A stretch of DNA of 64,000 nucleotides from NCBI GenBank assembly GCA_050945835.1, contig JBMNTR010000001.1, positions 9,384 to 73,383 on the forward strand, written 5' to 3'. The position numbers were made by a program, and so were the translations under genes. This document shows positions 6,337-60,076 of this stretch, piece after piece. Under the pieces are notes generated by a model that was not told the origin of the DNA, ran no database searches, and saw nothing but the letters and a program-made list of their open reading frames with translations. How positions within the stretch are numbered: the first letter of the stretch is position 1; each line of letters starts with the position of its first letter. This stretch comes from Christensenellales bacterium (GTDB lineage Bacteria; Bacillota; Clostridia; Christensenellales; JBMNTQ01).

Positions 6337-6388
6337 GCACTCATTGGGTTCTGTTCCAATATTAATCAAATTAGAAAAGGAGAAAAAG

Positions 6389-7444: not shown

Positions 7445-7452
7445 GTGACAGC

Positions 7453-7490
7453 AATGCCTCCCTCTTCAAGAAGGGGGAGGCATTATTTGT
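7453..7490 (+). terminator. Rho-independent terminator after the binding-protein gene
   Basis: 10-bp stem AATGCCTCCC/GGGAGGCATT followed by ATTTGT. Confidence 0.75.
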
Positions 7491-7614
7491 GTGGAGCGCG
7501 ATAGGGATAAGGGAAGCAGACATTCGTCGGGATAGAAGAGCGCCTGATGGCTACAAAGCGGTAACTAAAATGAGCAAATGGATCTCAGGTACGTAAGAAG
7601 AGGAGATTGTATAG

Positions 7615-8928
7615 ATGAGATACGATAAAGGATCGTGGGGGAATTGGATCACAGAAGGCTGGACGATAGATCAGGCGGTGATGTCGGCAGAAGACAAGGC
7701 CATTTTGCGTGAACTGGCCAAACAGTTCAGACAGCTGTGTGCGCAGCCTCAAGAGGAAGAGAAAATCAGACTCTGGACGGCGCACAATGATCTTGAGGAT
7801 ACACGACCGTTGATTCTGGTAGATATGGAGCACGGATGGAATGAAGTGTTTACATTTGATCGGGACATGCAATGCAGCGGTTATATGGCACAGGACTGGG
7901 AAATGTGGCTGCGCAAAGAAATTTTTTACGCGACAAAGCTTCGCGATGATAAACCGCTTACACCGGTATTTTACCTACCGCACCGAGCCGTAAATACAGA
8001 GTGGGGCATCAATGAAGAGCAGATCGGCAACGAGGACAAAAGAAACGCCTATGCCTGGGAGCCGATCTTTCGCAGCAAAGATGAGGCCTTCGAAGCTTTC
8101 GATGTGGACAGCATTGAAGATCCGTATGTTGAAGTGGACTGGGAAGCGACCAACCGCTATTTTGAGATCGGTCAGGATGTTTTCGATGGTATTTTATCTG
8201 TAGAATTTCGCACCTGGTGGTTTTGGTCCTCCTCAATTGTGCATGCCTATGCCCATTATCGCGGCATCGATGGCATGATGATCGATTTTTATGATTACCC
8301 CGATCGGTTTCATGAAATGATGCAGAAGTTTGTCAATGGCTATATGGGCAAACTGAGATGGCTGGAGCAAAACGGCCTGCTGTATAACAACGCAGGAAAT
8401 TGCTTCGTAGGCTCGGGTGGCCTAGGCTTTACAAATCAGCTTCATCCCAACCCACAGCACGTGCTGCTCAAGGATATGTGGGGGTTGAATGAGGCACAAG
8501 AAGCCACTGGCATCTCGGGTGAAATATACGGCGAGTTTATTTTTCCTTACCACAAGCAGGTGGCCGAAATGTTTGGCTTCAATTGCCACGCATGCTGTGA
8601 ACAAATGGAGCCTCTATGGGAGTATGTGCAGAAAATTCCCCGTTTGAGACGGGTTTCCGTCTCCCAATGGACAAATATCGAGATGATGTCGGAGTTTTTG
8701 GGCCGAGATTATGTATACTCCTACAAAGCTTGTTCCTCAGACACGGCGTTGCCGCAAATGAACGAGGATGTGGTGCGCGGACGGTTACAGAAAATGTATC
8801 ATGTCACGAAAGACAATCATGTGGAAATTGTGCTGAAAGACTTGCACACCATTGGCAATAATCCTCAACAAATCTGCCGCTGGGTGGAGATTGCACGTGA
8901 AGAAATGCACAAAGTCTATGGTTCGTGA
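7615..8928 (+). CDS. Hypothetical cytoplasmic protein (possibly a URO-D/methyltransferase-like barrel; family not recognised with confidence)
   Basis: 437-aa ORF. ATG follows AGAGGAG. No TM segments or signal peptide. It has its own upstream and downstream terminators. The family call is only a weak impression. Confidence 0.5.
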   Translation: MRYDKGSWGNWITEGWTIDQAVMSAEDKAILRELAKQFRQLCAQPQEEEKIRLWTAHNDLEDTRPLILVDMEHGWNEVFTFDRDMQCSGYMAQDWEMWLRKEIFYATKLRDDKPLTPVFYLPHRAVNTEWGINEEQIGNEDKRNAYAWEPIFRSKDEAFEAFDVDSIEDPYVEVDWEATNRYFEIGQDVFDGILSVEFRTWWFWSSSIVHAYAHYRGIDGMMIDFYDYPDRFHEMMQKFVNGYMGKLRWLEQNGLLYNNAGNCFVGSGGLGFTNQLHPNPQHVLLKDMWGLNEAQEATGISGEIYGEFIFPYHKQVAEMFGFNCHACCEQMEPLWEYVQKIPRLRRVSVSQWTNIEMMSEFLGRDYVYSYKACSSDTALPQMNEDVVRGRLQKMYHVTKDNHVEIVLKDLHTIGNNPQQICRWVEIAREEMHKVYGS

Positions 8929-9032
8929 AACTAACCCCTTTTAAAACAAAACATGAAGAAAATCCATGGGCAATACTGTGATGTTGCCGATAATCTGCTT
9001 TCCGAAGTGCTCATAAAAATAAAGTCAAAAAA

Positions 9033-9065
9033 AGCCCGCGATCGCATTCGCTGCGGGCTTTTTTG
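9033..9065. terminator. Bidirectional rho-independent terminator
   Basis: AAAAAAGCCCGC…GCGGGCTTTTTT: a GC stem flanked by an A-run and a T-run, lying between the 7615 gene and the tRNA cluster. Confidence 0.8.
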
Positions 9066-9067
9066 CT

Positions 9068-9143
9068 TGGTGGGCCATCAGGGATTCGAACCCGGGACGC
9101 CCTGATTAAGAGTCAGGTGCTCTACCAACTGAGCTAATGGCCC
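9068..9143 (-). tRNA. tRNA-Lys (anticodon CTT), CCA encoded
   Basis: The reverse complement is GGGCCATTAGCTCAGTTGGTAGAGCACCTGACTCTTAATCAGG…GGTTCGAATCCCTGATGGCCCACCA, with anticodon loop CTCTTAA. Confidence 0.9.
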
Positions 9144-9152
9144 CTATGAAAT

Positions 9153-9226
9153 TGGAGCGGGTGATGGGAATCGAACCCACGTAGCCAGCTTGGAAGGCTG
9201 GAACTCTACCATTGAGTTACACCCGC
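9153..9226 (-). tRNA. tRNA-Gly (anticodon TCC), CCA encoded
   Basis: The reverse complement is GCGGGTGTAACTCAATGGTAGAGTTCCAGCCTTCCAAGCTGG…GGTTCGATTCCCATCACCCGCTCCA. Confidence 0.9.
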
Positions 9227-9229
9227 GCT

Positions 9230-9304
9230 TGGAGCGGTAGACGAGATTCGAACTCGCGACATCCACCTTGGCAAGGTGGCACTCTACCACTGAGCTACTA
9301 CCGC
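9230..9304 (-). tRNA. tRNA-Gly (anticodon GCC), CCA encoded
   Basis: The reverse complement is GCGGTAGTAGCTCAGTGGTAGAGTGCCACCTTGCCAAGGTGG…AGTTCGAATCTCGTCTACCGCTCCA. Confidence 0.9.
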
Positions 9305-9313
9305 ACGTGATGG

Positions 9314-9396
9314 TGGTGCGGGCGAAGAGACTTGAACTCCCACACCGAAGTACCAGATCCTAAGTCTGGCGCGTCTGCCAATTCCGCCACGCCCGC
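9314..9396 (-). tRNA. tRNA-Leu (anticodon TAG), long variable arm, CCA encoded
   Basis: The reverse complement is GCGGGCGTGGCGGAATTGGCAGACGCGCCAGACTTAGGATCTGGTACTTCGGTGTGGGAGTTCAAGTCTCTTCGCCCGCACCA. Confidence 0.9.
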
Positions 9397-9443
9397 ATAA
9401 TCTTCATTGCCAAGGATACAAACAAAACTCCATGCAGGCAACT

Positions 9444-9477
9444 ATTATAGTTTAAAATGATATTTCGAAATTGTCAA
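9444..9477 (-). promoter_or_regulatory. Possible promoter of the tRNA cluster (perfect hexamers, non-canonical spacing)
   Basis: The minus strand reads TTGACA (9477-9472) … TATAAT (9449-9444), but the spacer is 22 nt. The -10 lies about 48 nt upstream of the tRNA-Leu 5' end. Confidence 0.35.
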
Positions 9478-9520
9478 TACCTTCATTTGTTTTTATGGAT
9501 GCATAGATTTCCCAGCGCCG

Positions 9521-11647
9521 TTAGGTGCTCACAAGATCGTTGTACCATTTCACAGCCGCGACATAGCAATCGTTGATCAGCTCGCTGCTCAAGCGGTGTT
9601 CTTGGGCAAACCGGTTCACTTCCTCCCAGTTGGAATATTCATAATTGCTAAAAAGAGAGATCAAATCCGAATAGATGCCGTCCTTTTGGAGCAAGGATTC
9701 ATGAACTTCCTCGGCCACCGGAATTTCACTGAGCAGCTCTTCTTTGGTTTTATCCAGCGCGATATGCAAAAGTGAAAACATACCGATGAAAAAGGCATGC
9801 TTGGGATTGCGCTTGGGAATGAAATGCGGCGCCAAAAGCTCGGCAAATTGCGCGCGTATCAACGAGATGCGCATCAACTCCAATGGCGTATCGGAGGCCA
9901 GACCGCGCAGCGACAAAAGCGAGATCCATTTTTTTAATTTTTCTTCGCCTAAGTATGTGACGGCTGTGGAAATAGATGAGATTCGATAGCGTAAGCCAAG
10001 CGCCGCCGAGTTGAGCAGCCGCAGCAGCTTATAGGAAAGCACGACATCGGACGCGATGATATCGCTGATCTCTTTGAAATCCACATGCCCTTCCGCGCTG
10101 GAGAGCTGTAATAAGCGGTAATAATTTACATGCAAAGGGTCGAGATCTTTTGTCTTTTTGGTGATCACCGGCTGCTGGAAATAATAGCCCTGGAAGTAAC
10201 GGAAACCGCGGATCTGCGCGTTTTCGAAGTCTATGATGTTGTCCACGTTCGTCGCGACAAAACTGATTTTATCATATTGCTTGATGAGCATGTTTTGCTC
10301 CGGATATCCGATATGATCGTAATCGAATTTGACATAATGGGCCAGCGACAAAAGCGCCGGAGACGCATTTGTGCGGTTCAGGTCGCTGAATGCAAGCGAA
10401 TAGCCGCAGGCACGTAAAGTACGGTATAGCTGCAAATCTTTCCTTTTGCACCGCGTGGGCAGTTGAAACTGTATGACAAATTTATCTTTGGGCAGATTCA
10501 AGCGTACGGAAGGCGAGAGAAGCTGATGGGAATAGGAGATGAAATAGCGTGTGTCGTTCTCGATATCCTCCAAACCCAGTGCGTCCAGCGTGCGTTCGAA
10601 TTCAGTGAGCACAACGGAATTTCCATCATTCGCTTCTTTCTTGCCCTGATCGATGAGCTCATAGCCGAACACCTCGCCTTTTTCCTTCATGACCGGCTGT
10701 ATGTCGATATAGAGATCGTTGGGCTTTTTGGCTTTGTCATAATGCTCTTCAAAGAATGTGATGGTATTTCGCCCCATGCTCTTCGATTTATACAGAGCGA
10801 TATCGGCTTTGCGCAGCAGCTCGGAGGTGGTGGTGCCGTGTTCCGGAAAGACGGAGACACCCATGCTGATGGTGCAGGTCAGATCGATGATGGGCAGCGT
10901 GTATTCCTGCAGCGCGTTGCCCAATACCGTGTCATAATGCTCATAGAACGCCGTTTCGGTGGGAAACCGGCTGATTGGATCCGCATAGAAGAGCACAAAC
11001 TCATCGCCGCCCAGGCGGTACAGATGCCCATCGTAGACCGCATCCGCCGTGAGGTGGGCTGCCAGCTTTTGCAGCATGATATCGCCGGTATTATGACCAT
11101 AAGTATCGTTTATGATCTTGAAATTATCCAAATCAAACATCGCAACGATGCCGCGAGTCTGATTGTGGCCGATGGATTCCCGATGTTCTTCGAAATCTTC
11201 TTTAAATTTCTGGCGATTGGGGATGCCTGTCAGATGATCGGTATAGGCCAAGGTATAGAGCTTCTTTTCGGCGGCGCGTTCGCGGTCTATATTGCGCAGA
11301 CACATCACGGTGGCCGGCTTGCCGTCTGTCCATTCGATGATATCGCAGGAGGCGGAGTAGGCATGGCCTTGTATGTCCTCCACGTCGAAAGTGAGGGAGG
11401 TGCCGTCGTCCTGCAGAAAGGAATGCTGCGCCGGGCAGTATTGGCATAGATCCGAATAAAGAAGGGAATACCCGGATTTACAGCTGTGATGATCCAATCT
11501 GTTTTTTTCCTGATGATTTTGCGCGGATGTGTTTCTAAAGAGCGTTTCGCACCCGGGACGCATGACCAGTATGTCGATGTCCGGCATGTTGAGCAGATTA
11601 CCCAGCAGTGTATTGATTTTTTGTTTTCTTTTTTTGAAAAACGCCAT
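9521..11647 (-). CDS. Cyclic-di-GMP signalling protein: Cys-rich N-terminal domain, GGDEF, degenerate EAL-like domain, HDOD
   Basis: 708 aa. Intact GGDEF (YRLGGDEFVLFY). EAL-like segment (EVFGYELID…VKFDYD…ATNVDN…FQGYYFQQP). C-terminal HDOD (ISDIIASDVVLSYKLLRLLNSAALGL…TAVTYLGEEKLKKW). An in-frame TAA lies 5 codons upstream of the ATG. Confidence 0.85.
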   Translation of the reverse strand: MAFFKKRKQKINTLLGNLLNMPDIDILVMRPGCETLFRNTSAQNHQEKNRLDHHSCKSGYSLLYSDLCQYCPAQHSFLQDDGTSLTFDVEDIQGHAYSASCDIIEWTDGKPATVMCLRNIDRERAAEKKLYTLAYTDHLTGIPNRQKFKEDFEEHRESIGHNQTRGIVAMFDLDNFKIINDTYGHNTGDIMLQKLAAHLTADAVYDGHLYRLGGDEFVLFYADPISRFPTETAFYEHYDTVLGNALQEYTLPIIDLTCTISMGVSVFPEHGTTTSELLRKADIALYKSKSMGRNTITFFEEHYDKAKKPNDLYIDIQPVMKEKGEVFGYELIDQGKKEANDGNSVVLTEFERTLDALGLEDIENDTRYFISYSHQLLSPSVRLNLPKDKFVIQFQLPTRCKRKDLQLYRTLRACGYSLAFSDLNRTNASPALLSLAHYVKFDYDHIGYPEQNMLIKQYDKISFVATNVDNIIDFENAQIRGFRYFQGYYFQQPVITKKTKDLDPLHVNYYRLLQLSSAEGHVDFKEISDIIASDVVLSYKLLRLLNSAALGLRYRISSISTAVTYLGEEKLKKWISLLSLRGLASDTPLELMRISLIRAQFAELLAPHFIPKRNPKHAFFIGMFSLLHIALDKTKEELLSEIPVAEEVHESLLQKDGIYSDLISLFSNYEYSNWEEVNRFAQEHRLSSELINDCYVAAVKWYNDLVST

Positions 11648-11676
11648 AGCTTTTCTTTCCGCTTACCGTTGCAGGC

Positions 11677-11728
11677 CGAAATCATCTGTAAGCCCTTGCC
11701 TGCGAAATCATCTGTAAGCACTTGCCTG
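11677..11728. repeat. Tandem direct repeat, 2 x 26 bp (25/26 identical)
   Basis: CGAAATCATCTGTAAGCCCTTGCCTG (11677-11702) is followed immediately by CGAAATCATCTGTAAGCACTTGCCTG (11703-11728), 30-80 nt upstream of the GGDEF gene start. Confidence 0.9.
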
Positions 11729-12166
11729 TATATTTTGATGCATACAATCTGTCAAAGCCGCCCATGCGAAGGCTGGCAGATGAGCACCTAAAAAACAAGA
11801 TCACCACGGCCCAAAACGACTGTTTGAGCTAAAATAAAACAGATGAAACTCTACCAAGCGCACGGGCGCTTGATGAAGCACATCTTCAACCATCAAAAAA
11901 CACATCTTTGGACTACCTGTATCATATCATGTCATATTGTTAAATTTCAACAAAATTAGTGCAAAAGCAGTTAAAGCGTGCGGCTTTGGCGCAAGATTGC
12001 CGTTTATTCCTGCCAAACCTGCCTGAATGCCATTCCCAATTCCTGTTTGCTGCATAAAATGATACTACATATACCCAACGCAGCACAGCAAGACTTATGT
12101 GTTTTTGCATCTGCAACGCTGTGTAACGCGGGATGCCGGCAAGGGTATTCATAAAGGAGGTTTTTT

Positions 12167-50910: not shown

Positions 50911-51369
50911 GTGAAAATTTTGACACAAAAGAAAAAATTATGGCGCATCATATTGCTGATATGTTTTGCGCTGCTGCTCACGGGCTGCAGCGAATCAGGG
51001 GAGGACAGCAACGCACAGAACAGCGAATCACCGGGCACCTTGGCGGAGGGTGAATCCGCCGCACCCGCCCCCACGCCCACGCCTACACCCACGCCGACGC
51101 CCACACCCACGCCCAAGCACATACAGCTGCTGGGGAAATGGACGCTTGAGGGCAACGGCGGCACATACGAATTCAAAGAAGACGGCACGCTGGACATCAT
51201 GTTTCCCACAGGCTATACCGCGACCTGGACCTATGAAGCCGACGAGGAGACGATCAAGTTTGTGCGGGCAGAGGACGATGCCATCGTGAACCAATACGAC
51301 ATCGTAGACGATGTGCTCAAATGGACAGACGAAGCGGAAATCGAATATACGGCCAAGCGCGAAAAGTAA
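50911..51369 (+). CDS. Small lipoprotein with a Pro-Thr linker
   Basis: 152 aa. GTG start, lipobox LLTGC, APAP(TP)7 linker. Confidence 0.65.
   Translation: MKILTQKKKLWRIILLICFALLLTGCSESGEDSNAQNSESPGTLAEGESAAPAPTPTPTPTPTPTPTPKHIQLLGKWTLEGNGGTYEFKEDGTLDIMFPTGYTATWTYEADEETIKFVRAEDDAIVNQYDIVDDVLKWTDEAEIEYTAKREK
51061..51114 (+). repeat. Hexanucleotide (ACN-CCN) tandem repeat encoding APAP(TP)7
   Basis: gcacccgccccc followed by 7 x (ac[g/a] cc[c/t/g]). Confidence 0.9.
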
Positions 51370-51496: not shown

Positions 51497-52201
51497 CTAG
51501 CCTTCACAGAGCCCTTTTTGGCGCAGCAGTGCTAAAAAATCCTCATCCAATCGGTTTTCCGCTTCGGAGATATCCCACAGATAATGTGCGTCTGAATTCT
51601 TGAGCAGCGGCAGATCGGCTAAAAGCGGATTGCTTTCGATTATGCCGCTTTTTTTTGACACGTCGGCCAGCTCATAGGCGTCCATGACACACTCCTGCGG
51701 TACGAAACCCAGGTTGGACAGAAGGCTGAAGGTGCTTTTGTCGATATGGGCGGGAAAATAAACGCCGCCAAAACGCTGCATAAGCGCTTCAAGCTCGAAA
51801 AACGAGATGCTGCTCGCGTTGATAAGCAGCTTGTCCACGCTGCCTGTCACTTCGTCGTGCTCATTCAGTATGAGTTGTTCGCCGAATATGGCGGGATCGT
51901 TGAGAATAGGGGGCAAGCGTTCCGCCACATATTCGTCGAACGCAAGCGCCTGTTCCAACTGCGTGAACAGACATACGGCGTGCACTTCCTCCGCCGTATT
52001 GATCTCCATGCCGCTCAACGCCAAAATGCCCGCCTTTTGGGCAACCTTCAAAAAGGCCGGGCAGTTTTTTGCGGTATTATGGTCTGTGAGCGCGATGATG
52101 TCCAGCTCCTTGAGCCGGGCCATATGTACGATGTTGTTCACGCTCATATCCCTGTCCCCGCAGGGAGACAGGCAGGAATGAATATGCAGATCGTAATAAA
52201 T
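51497..52201 (-). CDS. PHP-domain phosphoesterase; N-terminus has no canonical start codon
   Basis: The track ORF starts at ATG 52147. The same frame is open upstream and encodes …IYYDLHIHSCLSPCGDRD-MSVNN…, which contains the PHP metal-binding motif DLHIHS. The only plausible initiator is ATT 52201, 7 nt after GGGGGTG. Confidence 0.65.
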   Translation of the reverse strand: MYYDLHIHSCLSPCGDRDMSVNNIVHMARLKELDIIALTDHNTAKNCPAFLKVAQKAGILALSGMEINTAEEVHAVCLFTQLEQALAFDEYVAERLPPILNDPAIFGEQLILNEHDEVTGSVDKLLINASSISFFELEALMQRFGGVYFPAHIDKSTFSLLSNLGFVPQECVMDAYELADVSKKSGIIESNPLLADLPLLKNSDAHYLWDISEAENRLDEDFLALLRQKGLCEG

Positions 52202-52221
52202 CGGTGAACACCCCCAAGACG

Positions 52222-52551
52222 TTACAGGTTTTGATCGATCGCTTTGGCGGTTTCAAAAACGGAATTTTTGCTTGAAAGGATGGGGATCCCCTCCGTGTTG
52301 GCTTTTTGCAGGGCTTGGTCGTCCGCCTGTGCGCTTTCGGCCAGCACGATGCAGGACACATCCGTCAAAGACGCGACGGCCACCGCGTTGACATTGCCCA
52401 TAACGGTCACCCATGCGCTGCTTTCAGGTGCGCGCCCCATGGCGAAGCTCAGCAGATCGCAGCAATAGACGCTTGATATGGGTGCATCTAGCCCTTGTTC
52501 CCCTGCTAAGATATCAAAGCCCAGCCGATGCGCCGCTTCTTTTACCGTCAT
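52222..52551 (-). CDS. DRTGG-domain protein (copy B)
   Basis: 109 aa. The start overlaps the stop of the upstream gene (ATGA). DRTGG-like sequence (…CCDLLSFAMG…VTVMGNVNAVAVASL…). Confidence 0.7.
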   Translation of the reverse strand: MTVKEAAHRLGFDILAGEQGLDAPISSVYCCDLLSFAMGRAPESSAWVTVMGNVNAVAVASLTDVSCIVLAESAQADDQALQKANTEGIPILSSKNSVFETAKAIDQNL

Positions 52552-53882
52552 AGTTCCAAATCCTCCTCCGGTTCGTCGTGTTCAACCCACGGTTCGCTGT
52601 GTGCGTCTATACTGCTCAGCTTTGCCAGCTGCTGCGCGATATCATGCATGGTTTCCTTGAGCACGAATATGCACTCGTCCTTTTCGCAGTAGCCGCGGAC
52701 GATATCCTCCGCAAAAGCATGACAGGAGGGCGACCCGCAGGAGCCGCAGTCCAGCCCGCGCAGGCTTTCGGTGATGCGATCGATCTCCACCATCTTCTCC
52801 ATGGCGATGGCGAGGTCGTCGTCCAGCTGCATGACCGGCTTGTAGGTGACCGGCTGGTTCCACATCACACGATTGGGGTCGGAATCCGCCTTCAAGCCGT
52901 TGCGTGATGGCGGCAGCCCTTTGCGCAGCTGCTTGAGCTTTGCGCTCGCGATAAACGGATTCTGCACCGTCAACACACCGCCCACGCAGCCGCCCGGGCA
53001 GGCGTTTAACTCCACGAAATCCACGCTGAATTTATCGTCTTCCAGCTTTTCAAGCACACGGATGCAGTTTTCGATACCGTCTGCTGCCAGATATTGGTCG
53101 TCATTGGTGGCGAGCGCCTCGCCGCCGCTGCTTCCCCAGCGAATGCCCTCGCCGCCGGATTTCTGCAAGGCGGTATTCGCTTTTTCCGCCTTCATGATGT
53201 TGAGCAGCTTGGGATAGATCTCCTTGATGGCGATGGCCGCGTCCAGATTGCTTTGATCGCTGCCCAGCGGGTTGGCCACGGTGGTCACCTTGGCGGGGCA
53301 GGGCGAAATAAACACCGTGCCGATTTTTTCAGCACTCAGCCCCGTTTTCTTCATGGCGTTCTGCTTGGCAATATAGCCCGCGAGCTCGGCGGGCGTGATG
53401 ATGGGCAGTATATTGTCGATCAAATCCGGAAACCGCATTTGAATGAGCCTTGTGATGGTGGGGCAGGCCGAGCTGATGATGGGTTTTTTAAAATCACCCT
53501 TTTCAATAAATTTTCTGGTGGCGTCGGATATGATCTCGGCGGCGGTGGCCACTTCGAACACATCGTCAAACCCGAGCGCGAGCAACGCGTTGAGCAGCAC
53601 GTTGATGTTTTTGAGCTTGGTAAACTGCCCGTACAGCGAGGGCGCGGGCAGCGCGATGGTATACTCGAATTTATCGAGCACATCCAATGAATCATACACC
53701 GCTTTTTTAGCGTGATGCGGGCAAACGCGTATGCATTCGCCGCAGTCGATGCAGCGGTCCGACATGATTTCGGCTTTTCCTTTGCGAACCCGGATAGCTT
53801 CGGTCGGGCAGCGCTTTAAGCAGTTGGTGCAGCCTTTGCACCAATCGCGGCGCAATGTAACAGAATGAAAGATGGGATCCAA
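52548..53882 (-). CDS. [FeFe]-hydrogenase-like (HydS-type) Fe-S protein: 2x[4Fe-4S] ferredoxin domain, H-cluster-domain homologue, C-terminal Cys-rich Fe-S domain
   Basis: 444 aa. Ferredoxin motifs CKGCTNCLKRCP and CIDCGECIRVCP. H-domain motifs SSACPTI (versus TSCCP), SPCPAK (versus MPCxxK) and ACPGGCVGG. The C-terminus has LDCGSCGSPSCHAF. No PAS domain is visible. Confidence 0.8.
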   Translation of the reverse strand: MDPIFHSVTLRRDWCKGCTNCLKRCPTEAIRVRKGKAEIMSDRCIDCGECIRVCPHHAKKAVYDSLDVLDKFEYTIALPAPSLYGQFTKLKNINVLLNALLALGFDDVFEVATAAEIISDATRKFIEKGDFKKPIISSACPTITRLIQMRFPDLIDNILPIITPAELAGYIAKQNAMKKTGLSAEKIGTVFISPCPAKVTTVANPLGSDQSNLDAAIAIKEIYPKLLNIMKAEKANTALQKSGGEGIRWGSSGGEALATNDDQYLAADGIENCIRVLEKLEDDKFSVDFVELNACPGGCVGGVLTVQNPFIASAKLKQLRKGLPPSRNGLKADSDPNRVMWNQPVTYKPVMQLDDDLAIAMEKMVEIDRITESLRGLDCGSCGSPSCHAFAEDIVRGYCEKDECIFVLKETMHDIAQQLAKLSSIDAHSEPWVEHDEPEEDLEL

Positions 53883-53911
53883 TTATAACACCTTCTTTAA
53901 AAATGGTCAGA

Positions 53912-54340
53912 TCAAGTTACATTTAATACGGTCATGGAAATGGTGGTGCCTTCGCCTATTGTGCTCGAAATCTCAAAATCATCCGCATATTTCTTCATAT
54001 TGGGGAGCCCCATACCTGCGCCAAACCCAAGATCGCGCACATCGTTTGAAGCTGTGGAATAGCCGGCCTTCATGGCCAGATCAATATTGGGTATGCCCGG
54101 GCCGTGATCCACAAGCTGCATGTCGATACGATCCGTATGGATGGTTGCGGTAATCTCGCCGCCATTGGCATGGATCACCATGTTGATCTCGCCTTCATAC
54201 AATGCGATCGCGACTTTACGCACGACTTCAGGCGGAAACCCCAGGCGCTTCAATGCTTTTTTTATGTTGCTGGAGGCTTCCCCCGCACGCGTGAAATCAT
54301 CGCCCGGCACTTGATAGCTGAGCACGATCGGAGCGCTCAT
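53912..54340 (-). CDS. RsbW/SpoIIAB-like serine-protein-kinase-type ATPase (HATPase_c_2)
   Basis: 142 aa with …EGEINMVIHANGG…VDHGPGIPN…GFGAGMGLPN…. The ATG overlaps the upstream stop (TAATG). Confidence 0.75.
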   Translation of the reverse strand: MSAPIVLSYQVPGDDFTRAGEASSNIKKALKRLGFPPEVVRKVAIALYEGEINMVIHANGGEITATIHTDRIDMQLVDHGPGIPNIDLAMKAGYSTASNDVRDLGFGAGMGLPNMKKYADDFEISSTIGEGTTISMTVLNVT

Positions 54341-54687
54341 TACTCCACACCGCCCCTCAATCCGTTTTCATAGAGTAACCCGCAGGCTGTGAACATATGA
54401 TGTTTGGTCGCGAGCAGGCAGATTTCCTTTTCTTTCGCCATTTCAATCGTTATTTCGTCCGGTTGTTTGTTGCGCACAAAAACGATGCATTCAATGTCCA
54501 TCATTTCCGCGGTGCGCACCACTTGCGGGTTCATCATACCGCTTAAAAGGACAGGCTGGTCTTTCGCAAAAGCGAGCACGTCGCTCATCAAGTCACTGCC
54601 GCAGGCGGTGTGGATCTCATGGTCCATCTTATTTGCGCAGCAGTATACCGTGGCGTCCAGGATTTCCTTTACTTCTTGAATTGTCAT
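54340..54687 (-). CDS. DRTGG-domain protein (copy A)
   Basis: 115 aa. It is the first gene of the minus-strand operon. The ATG follows GGGAGG. Confidence 0.7.
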   Translation of the reverse strand: MTIQEVKEILDATVYCCANKMDHEIHTACGSDLMSDVLAFAKDQPVLLSGMMNPQVVRTAEMMDIECIVFVRNKQPDEITIEMAKEKEICLLATKHHMFTACGLLYENGLRGGVE

Positions 54688-54751
54688 AAACTACCTCCCA
54701 AGATTCAGATAATACGATCATTGCAGTGATGCATAACAAACGGAAACCAGC

Positions 54752-54763
54752 TGTTCATGAACA
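54752..54763. promoter_or_regulatory. Perfect 12-bp palindrome TGTTCATGAACA upstream of the sensor operon
   Basis: It is exactly self-complementary and lies 65 nt upstream of the DRTGG-A start. Confidence 0.35.
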
Positions 54764-54903
54764 ACCGTAATCTATAATAATATGATACAATCAGTTCAAG
54801 TATGCATGGATTTTAGCAAAAAGTCAATTGTACACTTCACACGGATCGTATTTGGAAAACATTTCAGAGTGATACGACTAATTATTTAAAAAAATGTGGT
54901 TTT

Positions 54904-54937
54904 TTGTGTAGATTTCACAAGGGAAATTTGCTATGAT
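54904..54937 (+). promoter_or_regulatory. Candidate hyd operon promoter (extended -10 TGCTATGAT) with an overlapping inverted repeat TTGTG-N7-CACAA
   Basis: TTGTGTAGATTTCACAA spans 54904-54920. TGcTATGAT spans 54929-54937. hydC starts about 125 nt downstream. Confidence 0.45.
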
Positions 54938-55062
54938 ATCTATGTTAGCTGATATTCATGTTTTCAGGTGCTTTATCGGGTTGCGCCCCGATGGAGCAAT
55001 TTGGCGTCCCAACGGTAAAATATGGATACGGCGTAAAAGTTGTGTAAGGAGATAATGCCGGA

Positions 55063-55563
55063 ATGCAAAACACTAAAACGAAGATCCCTTTTGAGGGCAG
55101 CGCGGAGCAGGAAAAGCAACTGCTCTCAGTCATCAACGGGCTCAAGAGCCAAAGAGGCTCGCTAATGCCCATCTTGCAGCAAGCGCAGGATATCTATGGT
55201 TATCTGCCCATAGAGGTGCAGACCATCATTGCGCGGGAACTGAAAATCCCTATCGAAGAGGTGTATGGGGTGGTGACATTCTACTCACAGTTTGCACTCA
55301 ACCCCAAAGGAAAGTACAGGATCGCCGTTTGTTTGGGTACGGCATGCTATGTGAAAGGCGCAGGCGACATTTTCGACGGCTTCTCACAGCGGCTGGGCAT
55401 ACAGAGCGGAGAATGCACGGAAGACGGGCAGTTTTCACTGGAGGCTTGCCGTTGCATCGGTGCGTGCGGGCTGGCGCCCGTTTTGATGGTAAACGACGAG
55501 GATGTGTTCGGGCAGGTGACGGTTGACGAACTCGACGACATCATCGGAAAATATAGGGCCTGA
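55063..55563 (+). CDS. hydC: NuoE-like [2Fe-2S] subunit of the NAD(P)H-linked [FeFe]-hydrogenase
   Basis: 166 aa. NuoE pattern …AVCLGTACYVKGA…EACRCIGACGLAPV…. Confidence 0.85.
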   Translation: MQNTKTKIPFEGSAEQEKQLLSVINGLKSQRGSLMPILQQAQDIYGYLPIEVQTIIARELKIPIEEVYGVVTFYSQFALNPKGKYRIAVCLGTACYVKGAGDIFDGFSQRLGIQSGECTEDGQFSLEACRCIGACGLAPVLMVNDEDVFGQVTVDELDDIIGKYRA

Positions 55564-55566: not shown

Positions 55567-56112
55567 ATGCAGGAGCTGTCCATGCATGTGCTTGATATCG
55601 CGCAGAACTCCGTGCGTGCCGGCGCCAGCGAGATCACGGTGATGCTGGAGGAGGATATCAAAAACGACAGCCTAGTGGTTACGATTACTGACAACGGTTG
55701 CGGTATGACCGAAGAGCAAGTTGAAAAGGTGACGGATCCGTTTTTCACCACGCGCACCACGCGCAAGATAGGCTTAGGCATTCCGTTTTTCAAGATGGCG
55801 GCTGAAATGACGGGAGGAAGCTTTCGGATCCAATCAGAAGTGGGAAAAGGCACAAAGGTAACGGCTGCGTTTGTCCGCTCCCATATCGACCGGATGCCGC
55901 TCGGCGATATGAACGAGACGATGGGCCAGCTGATGTGTTTGAACGAGGGAATTGATATTACTTACGCATACCGGATCGACGGCAAGGAGTTTTCGGTATC
56001 TTCCAACAGCTTTTGCGAGGTGCTGGAGGGTGTGCCGCTGAACACACCGCAGGTAATACAGTTTGTGATTCAGCATCTTAAAGAAAATACAGACGAATTA
56101 ATTGAGGCATGA
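55567..56112 (+). CDS. Stand-alone histidine-kinase-like ATPase (HATPase_c only, no HisKA or sensor)
   Basis: 181 aa with …DNGCGMTEEQ…GLGIPF…GGSFRIQSEVGKGT…. It is embedded between hydC and the 2Fe-2S gene. Confidence 0.75.
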   Translation: MQELSMHVLDIAQNSVRAGASEITVMLEEDIKNDSLVVTITDNGCGMTEEQVEKVTDPFFTTRTTRKIGLGIPFFKMAAEMTGGSFRIQSEVGKGTKVTAAFVRSHIDRMPLGDMNETMGQLMCLNEGIDITYAYRIDGKEFSVSSNSFCEVLEGVPLNTPQVIQFVIQHLKENTDELIEA

Positions 56113-56134
56113 TTAACATCGAATGGAGGCATCT

Positions 56135-56503
56135 ATGAAAAACTTAGCGGAACTTCAGGCATTGAGGGAAAAGATGAAAGGCCAGATGGGCATACGGGCA
56201 GATGCACCGGAAAACATCCGTATTGTCGTAGGTATGGCAACTTGCGGGATTGCTGCGGGCGCCAGACCTGTGCTCACGGCGATCAACGAGGAGGTTTCAA
56301 AGCGCAATCTGCATAACGTCACCGTCGCGCAGACGGGCTGTATCGGTATTTGCCAGTTTGAGCCGGTTGTGGAGATCCATGCACCGGGCAAGGATAAGGT
56401 GACCTATGTGCGTATGACTCCGGAAAAAGCAGTACGGGTCGTTGTGGATCATATTGTCAACGGACACCCGGTTTCAGAGTATACAATCGGCGCCAACGTT
56501 TAA
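56135..56503 (+). CDS. Thioredoxin-like [2Fe-2S] ferredoxin-domain protein
   Basis: The ATG at 56135 lies 7 nt after TGGAGG. Motif: VGMATCGIAAGA…TGCIGICQFEP. Confidence 0.75.
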   Translation: MKNLAELQALREKMKGQMGIRADAPENIRIVVGMATCGIAAGARPVLTAINEEVSKRNLHNVTVAQTGCIGICQFEPVVEIHAPGKDKVTYVRMTPEKAVRVVVDHIVNGHPVSEYTIGANV

Positions 56504-56527: not shown

Positions 56528-58315
56528 ATGTATCGTTCACATATATTGGTTTGCGCCGGTACCGGCTGTGCGTCGTCCGGCAGCGAGAAACTGATTTCGG
56601 TTTTTCAAGAGAAGGTCGAAGAAAATGGTCTTTCAGAAGAAGTGAAAGTCGTTAAAACGGGCTGTTTCGGGCTTTGTGCCAACGGGCCTGTGGTCATCGT
56701 ATACCCCGAGGGTGTGTTCTATTCGAAAGTCACCGAAGAAGACGCCATCGAGATCATCAACGAGCATATCGTAAAGGGCCGCATCGTGACCAAGCTGCTC
56801 TATGAGGATTCTGTGCATGAAGATGTGATCGAATCCCTGGACAACACGGATTTCTACAGAAAGCAAAAACGTGTTGCGCTGCGCAACTGCGGTGTGATCA
56901 ATCCGGAGGATATCAACGAGTATATCGCATACGACGGCTATCAGGCGCTGGGCAAGGTGCTCACCGAGATGACGCCGGAAGATGTGATACAGACACTCAA
57001 AGATTCAGGGCTGCGCGGCCGTGGCGGCGCAGGGTTCCCTACAGGTGTCAAATGGTCGTTTGCGGCGTCGCAGCCTAAGGGCGTAAAGTATGTCTGCTGC
57101 AATGCCGACGAAGGTGACCCGGGCGCGTTTATGGATCGTTCCGTTTTAGAGGGCGACCCGCATGTGCTCATCGAAGCGATGACCATCGCAGGCTATGCGA
57201 TCGGATCCTCCCAGGGGTATATCTATGTAAGGGCTGAATACCCCATCGCTGTGAAGCGTCTGACCATCGCCATTCGCCAGGCTCGCGAAGCGGGCTTGCT
57301 GGGCAGGGATATTTTAGGCACAGGATTTGATTTCGATCTGGATATCCGCCTGGGTGCAGGTGCGTTTGTCTGCGGCGAGGAGACCGCGCTGATGACTTCT
57401 GTGGAAGGGCACAGAGGCGAACCCCGTCCGCGTCCGCCGTTCCCGGCGGTGAAAGGCTTGTTTGACAAGCCCACCATACTCAACAACGTGGAAACCTACG
57501 CGAATATTCCGCGCATCATATTAAATGGCCCGGAATGGTTTGCCTCCATGGGCACGGAGAAATCCAAGGGCACCAAAGTGTTCGCACTGGGCGGCAAGAT
57601 CAAGAACACAGGCCTTGTGGAAATCCCCATGGGCACTACGCTGCGCGAAGTCGTGGAAGAAATCGGCGGCGGCATTCCCGATGGAAAGAAATTCAAGGCG
57701 GCACAGACCGGCGGTCCTTCCGGCGGATGTATCTCCATAGAAAATATCGATATTCCCATCGATTACGACAACCTGATCTCCATTGGCTCCATGATGGGCT
57801 CGGGCGGGTTGATCGTAATGGACGAAGACAACTGCATGGTGGATATCGCGAAGTTCTTCATGGGCTTTATCGTGGATGAAAGCTGCGGCAAATGCTCCCC
57901 CTGCCGGATCGGCACGAAGCGGCTGTATGAGCTTTTGGAGAAGATCACCAGCGGCAACGGCGAGATGGAGGATTTAGACAAGCTGGATGCGCTGTGTATG
58001 CACATCAAGGCGAACTCCCTCTGCGGCCTGGGCCAAACGGCCGCAAACCCGGTGCTGTCCACGCTGCGCTATTTCCGCGATGAATATGTGGATCATATCC
58101 AGAACAAACGCTGCATGGCGGGCGTGTGCAAGGATCTGCTGTCCTATGAGATACTGCCCGACAAATGCATCGGGTGCACCGCGTGCGCGCGTGTCTGCCC
58201 CACCAACGCCATTTCGGGCAAGGTGAAGGCTGTGCACACCATCGACAAAGAAAAATGTATCAAGTGTGGCGCTTGTATCGAAAAATGCAAGTTTGGCGCT
58301 ATTATTAAGAAGTAA
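56528..58315 (+). CDS. hydB: NuoF-like flavoprotein subunit of the [FeFe]-hydrogenase (FMN/NAD(P)H-binding, multiple Fe-S clusters)
   Basis: 595 aa with GRGGAGFPTG, GAGAFVCGEETALM, CGKCSPCR and a C-terminal 2x CX2CX2CX3C. Confidence 0.9.
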   Translation: MYRSHILVCAGTGCASSGSEKLISVFQEKVEENGLSEEVKVVKTGCFGLCANGPVVIVYPEGVFYSKVTEEDAIEIINEHIVKGRIVTKLLYEDSVHEDVIESLDNTDFYRKQKRVALRNCGVINPEDINEYIAYDGYQALGKVLTEMTPEDVIQTLKDSGLRGRGGAGFPTGVKWSFAASQPKGVKYVCCNADEGDPGAFMDRSVLEGDPHVLIEAMTIAGYAIGSSQGYIYVRAEYPIAVKRLTIAIRQAREAGLLGRDILGTGFDFDLDIRLGAGAFVCGEETALMTSVEGHRGEPRPRPPFPAVKGLFDKPTILNNVETYANIPRIILNGPEWFASMGTEKSKGTKVFALGGKIKNTGLVEIPMGTTLREVVEEIGGGIPDGKKFKAAQTGGPSGGCISIENIDIPIDYDNLISIGSMMGSGGLIVMDEDNCMVDIAKFFMGFIVDESCGKCSPCRIGTKRLYELLEKITSGNGEMEDLDKLDALCMHIKANSLCGLGQTAANPVLSTLRYFRDEYVDHIQNKRCMAGVCKDLLSYEILPDKCIGCTACARVCPTNAISGKVKAVHTIDKEKCIKCGACIEKCKFGAIIKK

Positions 58316-58330: not shown

Positions 58331-60076
58331 ATGGAAACCGTTAATATGAAAATCAACGGAATTGAAGTCCAGGCGCCGAAGGATGCAACCATTTTGGAAG
58401 CTGCAAACGCCGCCGGGATTCGAATTCCTACTCTTTGCTATTTAAAAGACATCAACGCCATCGGCGCCTGCCGTATGTGTGTTGTGGAAGTCAAAGGTGC
58501 GCGCGCGCTGGCTGCTGCTTGTGTGCATCCGGTTGCGGAGGGCATGGAAGTGCTCACCAACACCGCCAAGCTGCGCGAATCGCGTAAGACGACATTAGAG
58601 CTTATATTGTCCAACCACCGGATGGATTGCCTGTCCTGCAAACGCAACCTAAGCTGCGAGCTGCAGTCGTTGTCCTTAGATTATGGTGTGGACCAGAAGC
58701 GCTTCATGGGCGCTGAGGATTTAAGCCCGCAAATCGAGGATTCGGCACCGCACCTCGTGCGCGACAATTCCAAGTGCATACTCTGCCGCCGGTGTGTGGC
58801 GGTGTGCAGGAGTAATCAGCATGTAGGCGTGATCGGGCCGAACGACCGCGGCTTTGAAACGCATATCGCAAGTCCGTTCGATCTTCCGCTGGATTCCACC
58901 TCCTGCGTATACTGCGGGCAGTGCATCGCCGTTTGTCCGACAGGCGCGCTGATGGAAAAGGATGATACGCGCAAGGTATGGGAAGCTTTGGCGGACGAAA
59001 CAAAGCATGTCGTGGTCGCGCCCGCGCCGTCTGTGCGCGCGCAGTTGGGCGAATGCTTCGATTACCCCATCGGCACGAACATACAGGGCAAGATGGTTGC
59101 GGCGCTGCGAAGGCTAGGCTTTGACGGCGTGTTCGACGTCGATACCGCGGCGGACATCACCATCATGGAAGAGGGAACCGAGTTCTTAAACCGCCTAAAG
59201 GGTGAAGGCGGCCCCCTGCCGCTGATCACTTCCTGCTCGCCTGGCTGGATTAAGTTCTGTGAGCATTATTATCCGGATATGCTGCCCAATGTATCGAGCT
59301 GCAAATCCCCGCAGCAGATGTATGGCGCGTTGATGAAGACATACTATGCCGAGCTGAAGGGCATCGACCCGAAGGATATGTTCGTGGTGAGCGTCATGCC
59401 CTGCACAGCGAAGAAATTCGAAGTGAAGCGCGACGACCAGAACGCGGCGGGATACTCCGATGTGGACGTATCGCTGACCACCCGTGAGCTGGCGAGCATG
59501 ATCAATGAAGCCGGCATCGTATTCCAATCGCTGCCGGATGAGGAGTTTGACCCGGCGTTTGGCATCGCGTCCGGCGCGGGGCATATCTTCGGCGCGACCG
59601 GCGGCGTGATGGAAGCGGCGCTGCGCACCGTGGCCGAGATCGTGACCGGCAAACCGTTGGAATCCCTCGATTTTGAGGATGTCCGCGGCACAGAGGGCAT
59701 AAAGGAAGCGGAATATGACCTTGCGGGTACGAAGGTGCGCGTCGCGGTCACATCCGGCCTTGCGAACGCGAAAAAGCTGCTGGATATGGTGAAATCCGGA
59801 GAAAAGGATTATCACTTCATCGAAGTCATGGCATGCCCCGGCGGCTGTGTCAACGGCGGCGGGCAGCCGTATCAGCCCGGTTATGTGCGCAACTTCGTGG
59901 ATCTGCGCGCGGAACGCGCTAAAGCGCTCTATGGGTCTGACAAAGAGATGGAGCTGCGCAAGAGCCATGAAAACCCGGTCGTTCAAACGATCTATGACGA
60001 CTATCTGGGCGAACCCGGCAGCCACAAGGCGCATGATATACTGCATACAACCTATGTGGAGCGCTGCGTGTATTAA
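58331..60076 (+). CDS. hydA: [FeFe]-hydrogenase catalytic subunit (M3 architecture) with a variant P1 motif
   Basis: 581 aa. N-terminal 2Fe-2S, HX3CX2CX5C and 2x[4Fe-4S] sites. H-domain motifs TSCSPGW (canonical TSCCPxW), MPCTAKKFE and EVMACPGGCVNGGGQP. Confidence 0.9.
   Translation: METVNMKINGIEVQAPKDATILEAANAAGIRIPTLCYLKDINAIGACRMCVVEVKGARALAAACVHPVAEGMEVLTNTAKLRESRKTTLELILSNHRMDCLSCKRNLSCELQSLSLDYGVDQKRFMGAEDLSPQIEDSAPHLVRDNSKCILCRRCVAVCRSNQHVGVIGPNDRGFETHIASPFDLPLDSTSCVYCGQCIAVCPTGALMEKDDTRKVWEALADETKHVVVAPAPSVRAQLGECFDYPIGTNIQGKMVAALRRLGFDGVFDVDTAADITIMEEGTEFLNRLKGEGGPLPLITSCSPGWIKFCEHYYPDMLPNVSSCKSPQQMYGALMKTYYAELKGIDPKDMFVVSVMPCTAKKFEVKRDDQNAAGYSDVDVSLTTRELASMINEAGIVFQSLPDEEFDPAFGIASGAGHIFGATGGVMEAALRTVAEIVTGKPLESLDFEDVRGTEGIKEAEYDLAGTKVRVAVTSGLANAKKLLDMVKSGEKDYHFIEVMACPGGCVNGGGQPYQPGYVRNFVDLRAERAKALYGSDKEMELRKSHENPVVQTIYDDYLGEPGSHKAHDILHTTYVERCVY

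Follow-up and report, generated by a model that had tools for sequence, protein, structure and literature searches.

What tells an electron-bifurcating hydrogenase how much H2 surrounds the cell, and by which route does the message arrive? The question is raised by a locus in a 64,000-nucleotide stretch of DNA (hereafter the window) from a Christensenellales bacterium (GenBank assembly GCA_050945835.1, contig JBMNTR010000001.1, positions 9,384 to 73,383 of the forward strand). Here five minus-strand genes, encoding two DRTGG-domain proteins, a SpoIIAB-like GHKL ATPase, a putative sensory [FeFe]-hydrogenase (HydS) and a PHP phosphoesterase, lie divergent from the plus-strand operon hydC-HATP181-hydD-hydB-hydA. 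We find that the five genes form a conserved cassette with a recurrent hydrogenase partner, and that several of its proteins occur fused to one another in other lineages. Our tentative reading, which we regard as a serious possibility somewhat short of probable, is that the cassette is an ATP-dependent H2 switch, with HydS as its input and the ATPase and the two DRTGG proteins as its working parts, acting at the protein level on the NuoEF side of the bifurcating enzyme HydABC(D). The features of the locus are as follows (aa, amino acids).

54340..54687, minus strand: DRTGG1, 115 aa, a DRTGG domain on its own; the cassette begins with this gene
53912..54340, minus strand: ATPase142, 142 aa, GHKL ATPase resembling SpoIIAB and RsbW, a putative ATP switch or Ser kinase
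52548..53882, minus strand: HydS, 444 aa, TTG start, Group D (M2e)-type putative sensory [FeFe]-hydrogenase
52222..52551, minus strand: DRTGG2, 109 aa, paralog of DRTGG1
51497..52201, minus strand: PHP phosphoesterase, 234 aa from the homologous start ATT 52201, 216 aa from the first ATG 52147
54688..55062, no strand: divergent control region, 375 bp, between the cassette and hydC
55063..55563, plus strand: hydC, NuoE-like [2Fe-2S] subunit (Pfam 2Fe-2S_thioredx, 9e-50)
55567..56112, plus strand: HATP181 (ATPase181), histidine-kinase-type GHKL ATPase lacking a DHp/HisKA domain (HATPase_c, 1.6e-17)
56123..56503, plus strand: hydD, 126-aa thioredoxin-like ferredoxin-type subunit (weak 2Fe-2S_thioredx match)
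56528..58315, plus strand: hydB, NuoF-like flavoprotein subunit (Complex1_51K, NADH_4Fe-4S and Fer4 domains)
58331..60076, plus strand: hydA, catalytic group A [FeFe]-hydrogenase (NF040763, 897 bits)

The proteins of the cassette

The cassette genes are tightly packed. DRTGG1 and ATPase142 meet in a TAATG (stop 54342-54340, ATG 54340-54338), HydS and DRTGG2 in an ATGA (DRTGG2 ATG 52551-52549, HydS TGA 52550-52548), and a gap of 29 nt (53911-53883) lies between ATPase142 and the TTG start of HydS. An earlier description made from the letters alone (the sequence-only reading) had placed the five minus-strand genes, their close junctions and the 375-bp divergent region in this way, and the list of open reading frames (ORFs) and the sequence agree with it. 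Every domain it named was recovered by Pfam hidden Markov model (HMM) search at or above threshold, namely DRTGG twice, HATPase_c_2, Fe_hyd_lg_C with two Fer4 and PF04060, and PHP. All five frames are intact with their functional residues invariant, and the DNA of the locus is found again at 100% identity in independent sequencing runs and samples.

The central protein, HydS, matches Fe_hyd_lg_C (2.4e-36), with two Fer4 domains at residues 12-58 and PF04060 (6.9e-10) at residues 376-406. Its H-cluster ligands, C140 (SSACP), C195 (SPCPAK), and C295 and C299 (ACPGGC, with ACxGGC in the family), align to the corresponding motifs of hydA and are invariant in 14 homologs and in distant relatives. 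The position of the proton-relay Cys (C299 of CpI) is occupied by A139, invariant among homologs, and that of CpI M353 by S193 (in SPCPAK), which is Ser or Thr in all loci scanned. The eight Cys of the N-terminal dicluster domain are likewise invariant, as is a C-terminal Cx2Cx4Cx16C motif (C379, C382, C387, C404). The sequence-only reading had proposed that the H-cluster Cys are kept, that Ala replaces the relay Cys and that further Fe-S motifs stand at both ends of the protein, and the alignments bear out all three. No PAS domain was found in HydS by Pfam search. Group D, or M2e, was defined by loss of the relay Cys, replacement of M353 by Ser or Thr, the Cx2Cx4Cx16C motif and the lack of a PAS domain (Land et al., PMC8163306), and the residues given as conserved in Group D (C379, E392, D393 and C404; PMC13104023) coincide, number for number, with invariant positions of HydS. 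Because the H-cluster Cys are kept, the relay Cys is Ala, extra clusters are present at both ends and a PAS domain is lacking, HydS fits the Group D (M2e) putative sensory type as described by published sequence features. The model enzyme of this group, TamHydS from Thermoanaerobacter mathranii, turns over slowly, and its Hred state is stable (PMC8163306, PMC11803613). There is no structure of a Group C or Group D [FeFe]-hydrogenase in the PDB.

The likeness to hfs/HydS-type clusters that had been suggested for this locus stands in part: the link of a HydS-type protein to bifurcating hydrogenases is real, and orthology to hfs does not hold, since by its sequence features the type here is M2e/TamHydS and hfs belongs to Group C, with a PAS domain. 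HydS homologs are abundant, with all 8,000 of 8,000 scored candidates at E <= 1e-20 and relatives confirmed in at least 576 species genomes. Separately, a second and distant HydS-like gene (26-30% identity) lies just past hydA in six Lachnospiraceae-type loci (L032, L038, L041, L051, L075 and L079, at about 0.2-3.2 kb in locus coordinates), and may be Group C or another sensory type.

ATPase142 matches Pfam HATPase_c_2 at 1.7e-11, and its family profile finds SpoIIAB at 6.5e-11 (residues 30-138) and RsbW at 4.2e-5 in the PDB, so that the RsbW-like ATPase of the sequence-only reading is upheld by profile comparison. Against the NCBIfam spIIAB model the match stands at 2.8e-14, with 53 bits compared to a cut-off of 135; the score is far under the equivalog cut-off and the protein is therefore not a SpoIIAB ortholog. 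Its ATP-binding motifs are invariant (N-box E49/N53/H57, G1 D78xG80xG82, G2 G105-G111), and the family carries an invariant N-terminal motif of its own, D-F-T-x-A-G-x-A-S.

The two DRTGG proteins score above the Pfam cut-off of 25.2 bits (DRTGG1 26.1, DRTGG2 29.6), and their families align to each other with an hhalign probability of 98.2% at 23% identity. In DRTGG1 the motif A28-C-G-S-D-M-M-S35-D-V-L-A39 is invariant or nearly so among orthologs, and in DRTGG2 the residues D32, L34, S35, M38, T49, M51, N55, A58, V59 and L62 are invariant; common to both is D32-x-x-S35. The AlphaFold2 (AF2) model of DRTGG1 (pLDDT 86) is least confident at residues 31-40 (mean pLDDT 56), the block that holds GSDMMSDVLAF. 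Its best Foldseek match is AF1212 (2IOJ, TM 0.85), and it also resembles the CBS-pyrophosphatase insert (3L2B/3L31, TM 0.64-0.72) and the N-terminal domain of HPr kinase. The DRTGG insert region of CBS-pyrophosphatases is nucleotide-regulated.

For the PHP protein, one correction concerns the 5' end of the gene. Ahead of the first ATG (52147) the same frame already encodes a conserved N-terminus, YYDLHIHSCLSPCGD, which contains the HxH metal motif. The 18 in-frame codons 5' of ATG 52147 are free of stops and encode the canonical PHP N-terminus PIYYDLHIHSCLSPCGDRD, and no in-frame ATG, GTG or TTG occurs in this upstream PHP stretch. The homologous start is ATT 52201: the window reads IYYDLHIHS where the closest relatives among the 80 loci compared below (L005 and L013) read MYYDLHIHS, and in 77 orthologs the start codon lies 2-5 codons ahead of YDLHIHS. 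A Shine-Dalgarno-like GGGGG run precedes the ATT by 9 nt, and the reads of SRR31061295 (L085), an independent sequencing run, show ATT there too. The 216-aa form lacks the HxH motif, which is translated only from initiation at or before ATT 52201; the N-terminal peptide at stake is YYDLHIHSCLSPCGDR. This leaves two options: initiation at ATT, a rare start codon, or, in this strain, a PHP that is truncated at its N-terminus and probably inactive. With the longer form, the metal motifs HxH, DH, E, H, H and DxH are all present, and the residues Y3, D4, H6, H8, D40, H41, E66, H74, H152, D204 and H206 are invariant in 78 orthologs; C14 is invariant as well and C10 nearly so (Ala in L005 and L013). 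The PHP family profile hits at <= 0.01 are EndoQ (4e-8), RNase AM (2e-7), nucleotide phosphoesterases of the pAp-phosphatase type, TM0559 and PolC.

Conservation, fusions and variant loci

To place the cassette in its family, the ten window proteins were compared by tblastn with the 80 best species loci by HydS (52-67% identity, out of at least 576), which belong to Oscillospirales, Lachnospirales and Christensenellales. The order DRTGG1-ATPase142-HydS-DRTGG2-PHP on one strand is found in 77 of them; of the other three, one comes from a fragmented assembly, one lies at a contig end, and in L037 DRTGG1 and ATPase142 were undetected. The operon hydC-HATP181-hydD-hydB-hydA lies within 10 kb of the cassette in 70 loci (58 divergent, 12 tandem downstream). 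Such an arrangement is far beyond chance, and it supports a co-occurrence of the five genes, both among themselves and with hydABC, across Clostridia. The median spacing is -4 nt at DRTGG1/ATPase142, HydS/DRTGG2 and DRTGG2/PHP and +31 nt before HydS, taken from longest-ORF starts, which overstate the overlaps. All-against-all clustering of the 5,571 ORFs of the 80 loci revealed no conserved gene beyond the ten and their antisense shadows, and so no transcription factor, sigma factor, STAS protein or hydEFG; that the cassette has no DNA-binding, sigma or STAS gene, as first read from the letters, thus holds for the cassette here and, as regards conserved neighbors, for the 80 loci. The module as first described was too small: its five genes stand, and the 181-aa histidine-kinase-like ATPase inside the hyd operon, which had been left out, travels with them.

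Indeed, HATP181 is present in all 70 of the adjacent hyd operons, and is a homolog of the hypothetical protein Tte0891. Its only Pfam domain is HATPase_c at residues 8-101, leaving some 80 C-terminal residues with no match, and no HisKA/DHp phospho-acceptor domain was found by Pfam. The N-box, G1 and G2 motifs are invariant. The AF2 model (pLDDT 90) consists of a GHKL domain and a small C-terminal alpha/beta domain, and Foldseek matches it to PMS2/MutL-N, the HK853 CA domain and TopoVI-B. In Caldanaerobacter the native order is hydC-tte0891-hydD-hydB-hydA, identical to that of the window operon, and in C. subterraneus His-tagged HydC pulls down HydA, HydB and HydD (PMC4694547). The window hydA exceeds the cut-off of NCBIfam NF040763, 'NADH-dependent [FeFe] hydrogenase, group A6' (cut-off 765 bits), and its best PDB match is A. 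woodii HydA1 (7q4v, 1.2e-215). Two of the operon's subunits have Cys patterns worth noting. HydA has TSCSPGW as its L1 motif rather than the textbook TSCCPxW, as do 55 of 56 hydA orthologs of L005-L084 and A. woodii HydA1 (7q4v), with T. kivui HydA1 (8a6t) reading TSCCPSW; the second Cys of TSCCPxW, which we take to be an H-cluster ligand, is thus Ser in a clade of active bifurcating enzymes. An extra Cys is found in the HydA sequence SSCKSPQ. In HydD the only invariant Cys are C41, C73 and C77, together with His110; the protein falls below the Pfam thioredoxin-like [2Fe-2S] threshold, and its cluster ligation may be unusual.

We examined covariation among the ten proteins as partial correlations of pairwise distance matrices in the 53 species that have all ten genes. 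The catalytic pair HydA-HydB reached a partial r of 0.85, and HydS-HydD gave 0.52 (70% subsamples 0.35-0.58; label-permutation maximum 0.14), the highest non-catalytic covariation with HydS, followed by ATPase142-HATP181 (0.28), HydS-DRTGG1 (0.27) and DRTGG2-PHP (0.23), all of them mirror-tree (partial Mantel-type) statistics, which are anticonservative and count as weak evidence. The covariation of HydS with HydD suggests that HydS may contact the hydrogenase through HydD.

In order to see how the ATPase is combined with other domains, a HMMER search with ATPase142 was run, which returned 2,303 cluster representatives at E <= 1e-3 (106 at E <= 1e-30). The best 150 of these 50%-identity representatives were classed by family HMMs and Pfam as follows.

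Stand-alone ATPase: 53 of 150
ATPase with a C-terminal HydS-like fusion: about 49 of 150
N-terminal CBS pair with ATPase: about 31 of 150
N-terminal DRTGG1, with or without CBS, with ATPase: 8 of 150

A DNA-binding domain was fused to the ATPase in 0 of the 150. In P0377, a DRTGG1-ATPase fusion, the N-terminal half is plainly a DRTGG1 ortholog. The fused order, DRTGG1-(CBS)-ATPase-HydS, is that of the genes in the window. By this Rosetta-stone argument DRTGG1, ATPase142 and HydS probably form one physical unit. In the HydS-like domains fused to the ATPase, the twelve Cys of the accessory clusters and the four of the H-cluster are all retained. Missing from these domains are the GxxWGSSGGEA loop and the Lys of SPCPAK, and their Fe_hyd_lg_C matches are weak, at 26-38 bits (P0372, P0381, P0393 and about 45 others; L089 868-2496); these fused domains may therefore hold no [2Fe] site.

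The gene contexts of the fusion proteins, checked with custom family HMMs, show which parts of the cassette are constant. In L089-91 the genes for DRTGG1, ATPase-HydS, DRTGG2, PHP, HATP181, hydC, hydD, hydB-gltD and hydA follow one another on one strand with minimal spacing, and L094 has a similar arrangement with a DRTGG1-ATPase fusion; in L089 and L094 HATP181 stands directly after PHP. Variants that lack HydS are L095 (9001-19158), L096/97 (L096 8601-16865) and L099 (5074-9296), where DRTGG1, CBS-ATPase, DRTGG2 and PHP are followed by a nuoE-like gene and HATP181, with DRTGG2 coming directly after the ATPase. In L095 and L096/97 a hydD-like and then a nuoF-like gene follow HATP181, and L095 runs on into a [NiFe] Hox-type hydrogenase; the contig of L099 ends inside the HATP181 gene. 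L092 has DRTGG1, CBS-ATPase, HydS and DRTGG2 without PHP, near a hydCBA set that lacks both HATP181 and hydD. The constant core is accordingly ATPase142 with the two DRTGG paralogs, and a NuoE/NuoF-type module is its constant genomic partner. In this small sample of variants PHP, HATP181 and hydD are present together or not at all. Because the DRTGG/ATPase/DRTGG/PHP set occurs without HydS beside nuoE-HATP181-hydD-nuoF, HydS looks like one exchangeable input, with HydS and CBS as alternative or additive ones.

The control region between cassette and operon was searched for shared signals. On the minus strand it has a sigma-70-like site (TTGACT-17-CATACT, 54827-54799). The cassette leader contains a perfect 12-bp palindrome, TGTTCATGAACA (54763-54752), as part of a terminator-like hairpin, and the region also has a 17-bp inverted repeat, TTGTGaaatctaCACAA (54920-54904), that is Rex-box-like with a center of 7 nt instead of 8. 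None of the three is conserved in the other species examined. Rex control of the divergent region was rejected: TTGTGAA-N4-TTCACAA with <= 2 mismatches occurs in 3 of 51 divergent regions, and neither the window nor any of the 80 loci has a Rex gene. A shared operator or leader was also sought by k-mer and palindrome scans of 79 upstream regions, which returned AT-rich words and species-specific palindromes only. Rfam gave no match on the control region at E <= 1, and promoter and terminator counts were not above shuffled controls.

Some neighboring features can be set apart from the cassette. In Anaerotruncus colihominis (L001-L003, 10408-10764) the stop of PHP lies within the start of a gene with a NusG_II domain, and in L092 (16305-16694) such a gene comes after the rnf operon; the 80 loci do not conserve it, and we judged it unrelated and probably tied to Rnf/flavin maturation. 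Membership in a defense system was rejected, as PADLOC gave only marginal matches to PHP and the ATPase. Directly downstream of the cassette, window positions 50911-51369 (plus strand) encode a putative small lipoprotein with a (Thr-Pro)8 linker from a GT/GG-rich dinucleotide-like repeat. Positions 1-12000 of the window have a G+C content of 41-48%, compared to 51-58% across most of the remainder, and may be a foreign or distinct segment.

How the cassette may act

There are several possible explanations for this arrangement. In the one we prefer, the five genes and HATP181 would be a regulatory unit of the adjacent electron-bifurcating HydABC(D). HydS would bind H2 and settle into a reduced or altered conformational state; being physically bound to ATPase142, like a sensor domain on a kinase, it would then change the ATP-dependent interaction of the ATPase with both DRTGG paralogs, which may be phosphorylated on their invariant, flexible D-x-x-S loop. 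The switch would be reset by the PHP phosphoesterase and perhaps by the second ATPase, HATP181. Its output would be a protein-level effect on the NuoE/NuoF (HydC/HydB) side, possibly via HydD, rather than transcription by a linked DNA-binding protein, and H2 production would thus be tuned to H2 pressure and energy state. We favor a protein-level output because no linked DNA-binding partner was found anywhere in the family, because regulators and structural genes share single operons (L089-91, L094), because HydS-less variants persist beside NuoEF genes, and because HydS co-varies with HydD. Phosphorylation at D-x-x-S, the direction of the response and its target are what we infer from these patterns. 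The interpretation offered in the sequence-only reading finds partial support here; its kinase/phosphatase/substrate triad is a conjecture. In a wider version, the DRTGG-ATPase-DRTGG core with PHP, HATP181 and HydD would be a device, widespread and not described before, that controls flavin-based, electron-bifurcating oxidoreductases of the NuoE/NuoF type after translation, with interchangeable inputs (HydS or a CBS pair) and HydS docking via HydD; this we consider doubtful.

A number of observations weigh against the H2 switch. To our knowledge, H2 sensing in vivo by a Group D HydS has not been demonstrated experimentally, and we know of no DRTGG domain for which phosphorylation has been described. 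The idea that the DRTGG proteins are STAS analogs by homology was rejected, as the 50 Foldseek matches listed include no STAS protein. PHP-type protein phosphatases are of the CpsB/YwqE kind; the PHP family here is closest by profile to nucleases and nucleotide phosphoesterases, and no entry named as a PHP protein phosphatase is among its PDB profile hits at <= 0.01, although such an activity is possible despite the missing sequence match. Because its start codon is ATT, PHP may additionally be poorly made or truncated in this strain. The hyd operon is not found within the 8-10 kb flank in 10 of the 80 loci, nor in A. colihominis and one Lachnospiraceae metagenome-assembled genome (MAG), and a divergent layout of regulator and target is also typical of transcriptional control. 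The covariation of HydS and HydD is a lead only, and the HydS-like domains fused to the ATPase may sense redox state rather than H2. TamHydS still turns over H2 and is catalytically competent, if slow (PMC8163306); a 2026 study of it found the C-terminal cluster unresponsive to H2 and judged signaling by the redox state of that cluster unlikely (PMC13104023), which takes away one obvious relay route. Additionally, the Tte0891 homolog of HATP181 was not reported among the proteins that co-purify with HydABCD (PMC4694547).

The first alternative to be weighed keeps partner switching and gives it a transcriptional output: the ATPase would be an anti-sigma factor or an antagonist of an unlinked regulator, and H2-loaded HydS with the DRTGG proteins would trigger release, changing transcription of hydABC and fermentation genes. 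ATPase142 is indeed closest to the anti-sigma factors SpoIIAB and RsbW, the cassette shares a control region with a divergent hydABC in 58 of 80 species and stays intact where the hyd operon is not within 8-10 kb, and in three CBS-type loci (L095, L098 and L099) a Rex gene lies directly upstream of DRTGG1. We nonetheless think it unlikely, given that the 80 loci have no sigma, STAS or DNA-binding gene as a conserved member, that Rex is absent from these and from the window, that fusions to a DNA-binding domain do not occur among the 150 ATPase representatives, that the control regions share no operator, and that several lineages pack regulators and structural genes into one operon. This last feature, like the lack of an output domain, would also suit a cassette that does not regulate at all and instead assembles, repairs or reductively activates HydABC(D), with HydS as a low-rate hydrogenase or electron-entry module, the GHKL protein as a chaperone-like or conformational motor and PHP as a hydrolase. 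Such a maintenance role agrees with the competence of slow TamHydS (PMC8163306), with the existence of non-kinase motors among GHKL ATPases (the fold of HATP181 matches MutL/PMS2 and TopoVI-B) and with the covariation of HydS with a structural subunit, HydD. It strikes us as rather improbable all the same: ATPase142 resembles signaling kinases, not chaperones, it is partnered by CBS and DRTGG, ligand-binding domains typical of regulation, a CBS pair can replace HydS, and recombinant Caldanaerobacter HydABCD came together in E. coli from hydC-tte0891-hydD-hydB-hydA with none of the five cassette genes supplied (PMC4694547).

The nearest solved relatives of PHP and the recurrence of CBS pairs, which replace or join DRTGG1 in about 31 of the 150 representatives, point instead to nucleotides as the signal. 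DRTGG and CBS domains would bind adenine nucleotides or a dinucleotide, PHP would degrade a small phospho-nucleotide signal and HydS would gate the system by H2, so that energy charge and H2 pressure are integrated; the match of the DRTGG fold to the CBS-pyrophosphatase regulatory insert is in keeping with this. The cassette, however, contains no synthase for such a signal, L092 keeps the other four genes without PHP, and the similarity of PHP to its solved relatives is mainly confined to the N-terminal metal motifs, all of which leaves the nucleotide-centered scheme with little probability. Least credible of all, to the point where we would be surprised by it, is that the cassette is decaying or non-functional in this strain and has lost its PHP start. 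The replacement by ATT of the ATG found in the closest relatives, and the want of an in-frame ATG, GTG or TTG 5' of ATG 52147, are what would be expected from decay, but the five frames and their invariant residues, the stop-free upstream codons that still encode the conserved motif, the GGGGG run ahead of ATT and the recurrence of the identical sequence in independent samples are not.

Relation to known systems

Parts of this arrangement have been noticed before. The pairing of M2e and A1 bifurcating hydrogenases, "separated by a kinase", has been known since 2010-2013, as passages of PMC3561251 (citing Calusinska 2010) and PMC3608648 put it. In Carere 2012 (PMC3561251) the M2e genes of Caldicellulosiruptor, Caldanaerobacter, C. 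thermocellum, C. phytofermentans and Thermoanaerobacter are listed at a distance of five locus tags from trimeric hydrogenases of the A1 type, and Verbeke 2013 (PMC3608648) gives the like for all Thermoanaerobacter genomes. Land et al. (PMC8163306) note the flanking histidine-kinase-like ATPase and raise the question of how the signal is transduced, and work cited in PMC3561251 observed an effect of H2 pressure on NADH-dependent hydrogenase activity in Caldanaerobacter. The Group D HydS cassette is thus an established, well-populated and previously noticed arrangement, of which the window locus is an ordinary representative. No link of DRTGG or PHP proteins to these hydrogenases was found in the searchable literature, and what is added here is that the five genes keep a fixed order and include PHP and two DRTGG paralogs, together with the fusions and the variants that lack HydS.

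The H2 yield and the redox balance of fermentations in the gut, in the rumen and in industry are set by electron-bifurcating hydrogenases. The TamHydS papers call the signaling route of Group D unknown. The present analysis names partners for work with the existing TamHydS (the SpoIIAB-like ATPase, two DRTGG paralogs, PHP, HATP181 and HydD), and the fusions together with the existing TamHydS preparation make the signaling question directly testable. On the wider version above, a new class of GHKL switch would receive its H2 input through Group D HydS; the HydS-less loci suggest that the same switch may control other NuoEF-type complexes that have no hydrogenase sensor, and, if confirmed, it would offer a handle for engineering H2 or ethanol yields.

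By its features TamHydS itself is the closest described protein, with about 440 aa, an N-terminal 2x[4Fe-4S] domain, four Cys ligands, Ala at the relay position, Ser at the M353 position, the C-terminal Cx2Cx4Cx16C and no PAS domain (PMC8163306, PMC10407848, PMC11803613, PMC13104023). It comes from a thermophile, whereas the window HydS is from a mesophilic Christensenellales MAG, and the published work covers the enzyme alone, without DRTGG, PHP or second-ATPase partners. The published M2e-kinase-A1 TR(M3) neighborhood has the same PAS-less sensory-type hydrogenase beside hydC-(ATPase)-hydD-hydB-hydA, but between the hydrogenases the papers give only 'a histidine/serine kinase'. In the Knallgas bacteria the kinase-type protein bound by the regulatory [NiFe]-hydrogenase, HoxJ, contains PAS-like and HisKA domains and has a response-regulator output. 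That system, too, binds a low-activity H2 sensor hydrogenase to a kinase-type protein, and kinetic parallels are drawn in Land 2020; its metal site is unrelated, and the PAS-like and HisKA domains and response-regulator output of HoxJ (Land 2020) have no counterpart in the cassette.

Much like the SpoIIAB/SpoIIAA/SpoIIE and RsbW/RsbV/RsbU modules, the cassette contains a GHKL protein of about 140 aa, of the same subfamily and with intact ATP motifs, whose neighboring genes code for small alpha/beta proteins and a phosphoesterase. It differs from them in having no STAS protein, PP2C phosphatase or sigma factor, with PHP in the place of PP2C, and in that its sensor is a metalloenzyme, fused to the ATPase in other lineages. 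PP2C-type phosphatases and kinases are the partners of Group C sensory hydrogenases. Group C (M2f: TmHydS, HfsB and R. albus HydS) resembles the window HydS in its lost relay Cys, slow turnover, C-terminal [4Fe-4S] cluster and proximity to bifurcating hydrogenases, and carries a C-terminal PAS domain (PMC8163306, PMC8924675, PMC3561251). That domain is lacking here, where the partners are DRTGG proteins, a SpoIIAB-like ATPase and PHP. Finally, the DRTGG proteins share their fold with AF1212 and with the CBS-pyrophosphatase insert, and an association with CBS pairs is seen here as well. The classical D-R-T-G-G signature appears as LLSGMMNPQVVRTA in the window and as LLTGLxNPQVxRTA in the family consensus, and, unlike in those proteins, DRTGG here takes the form of two stand-alone paralogs with an invariant D-x-x-S loop of their own.

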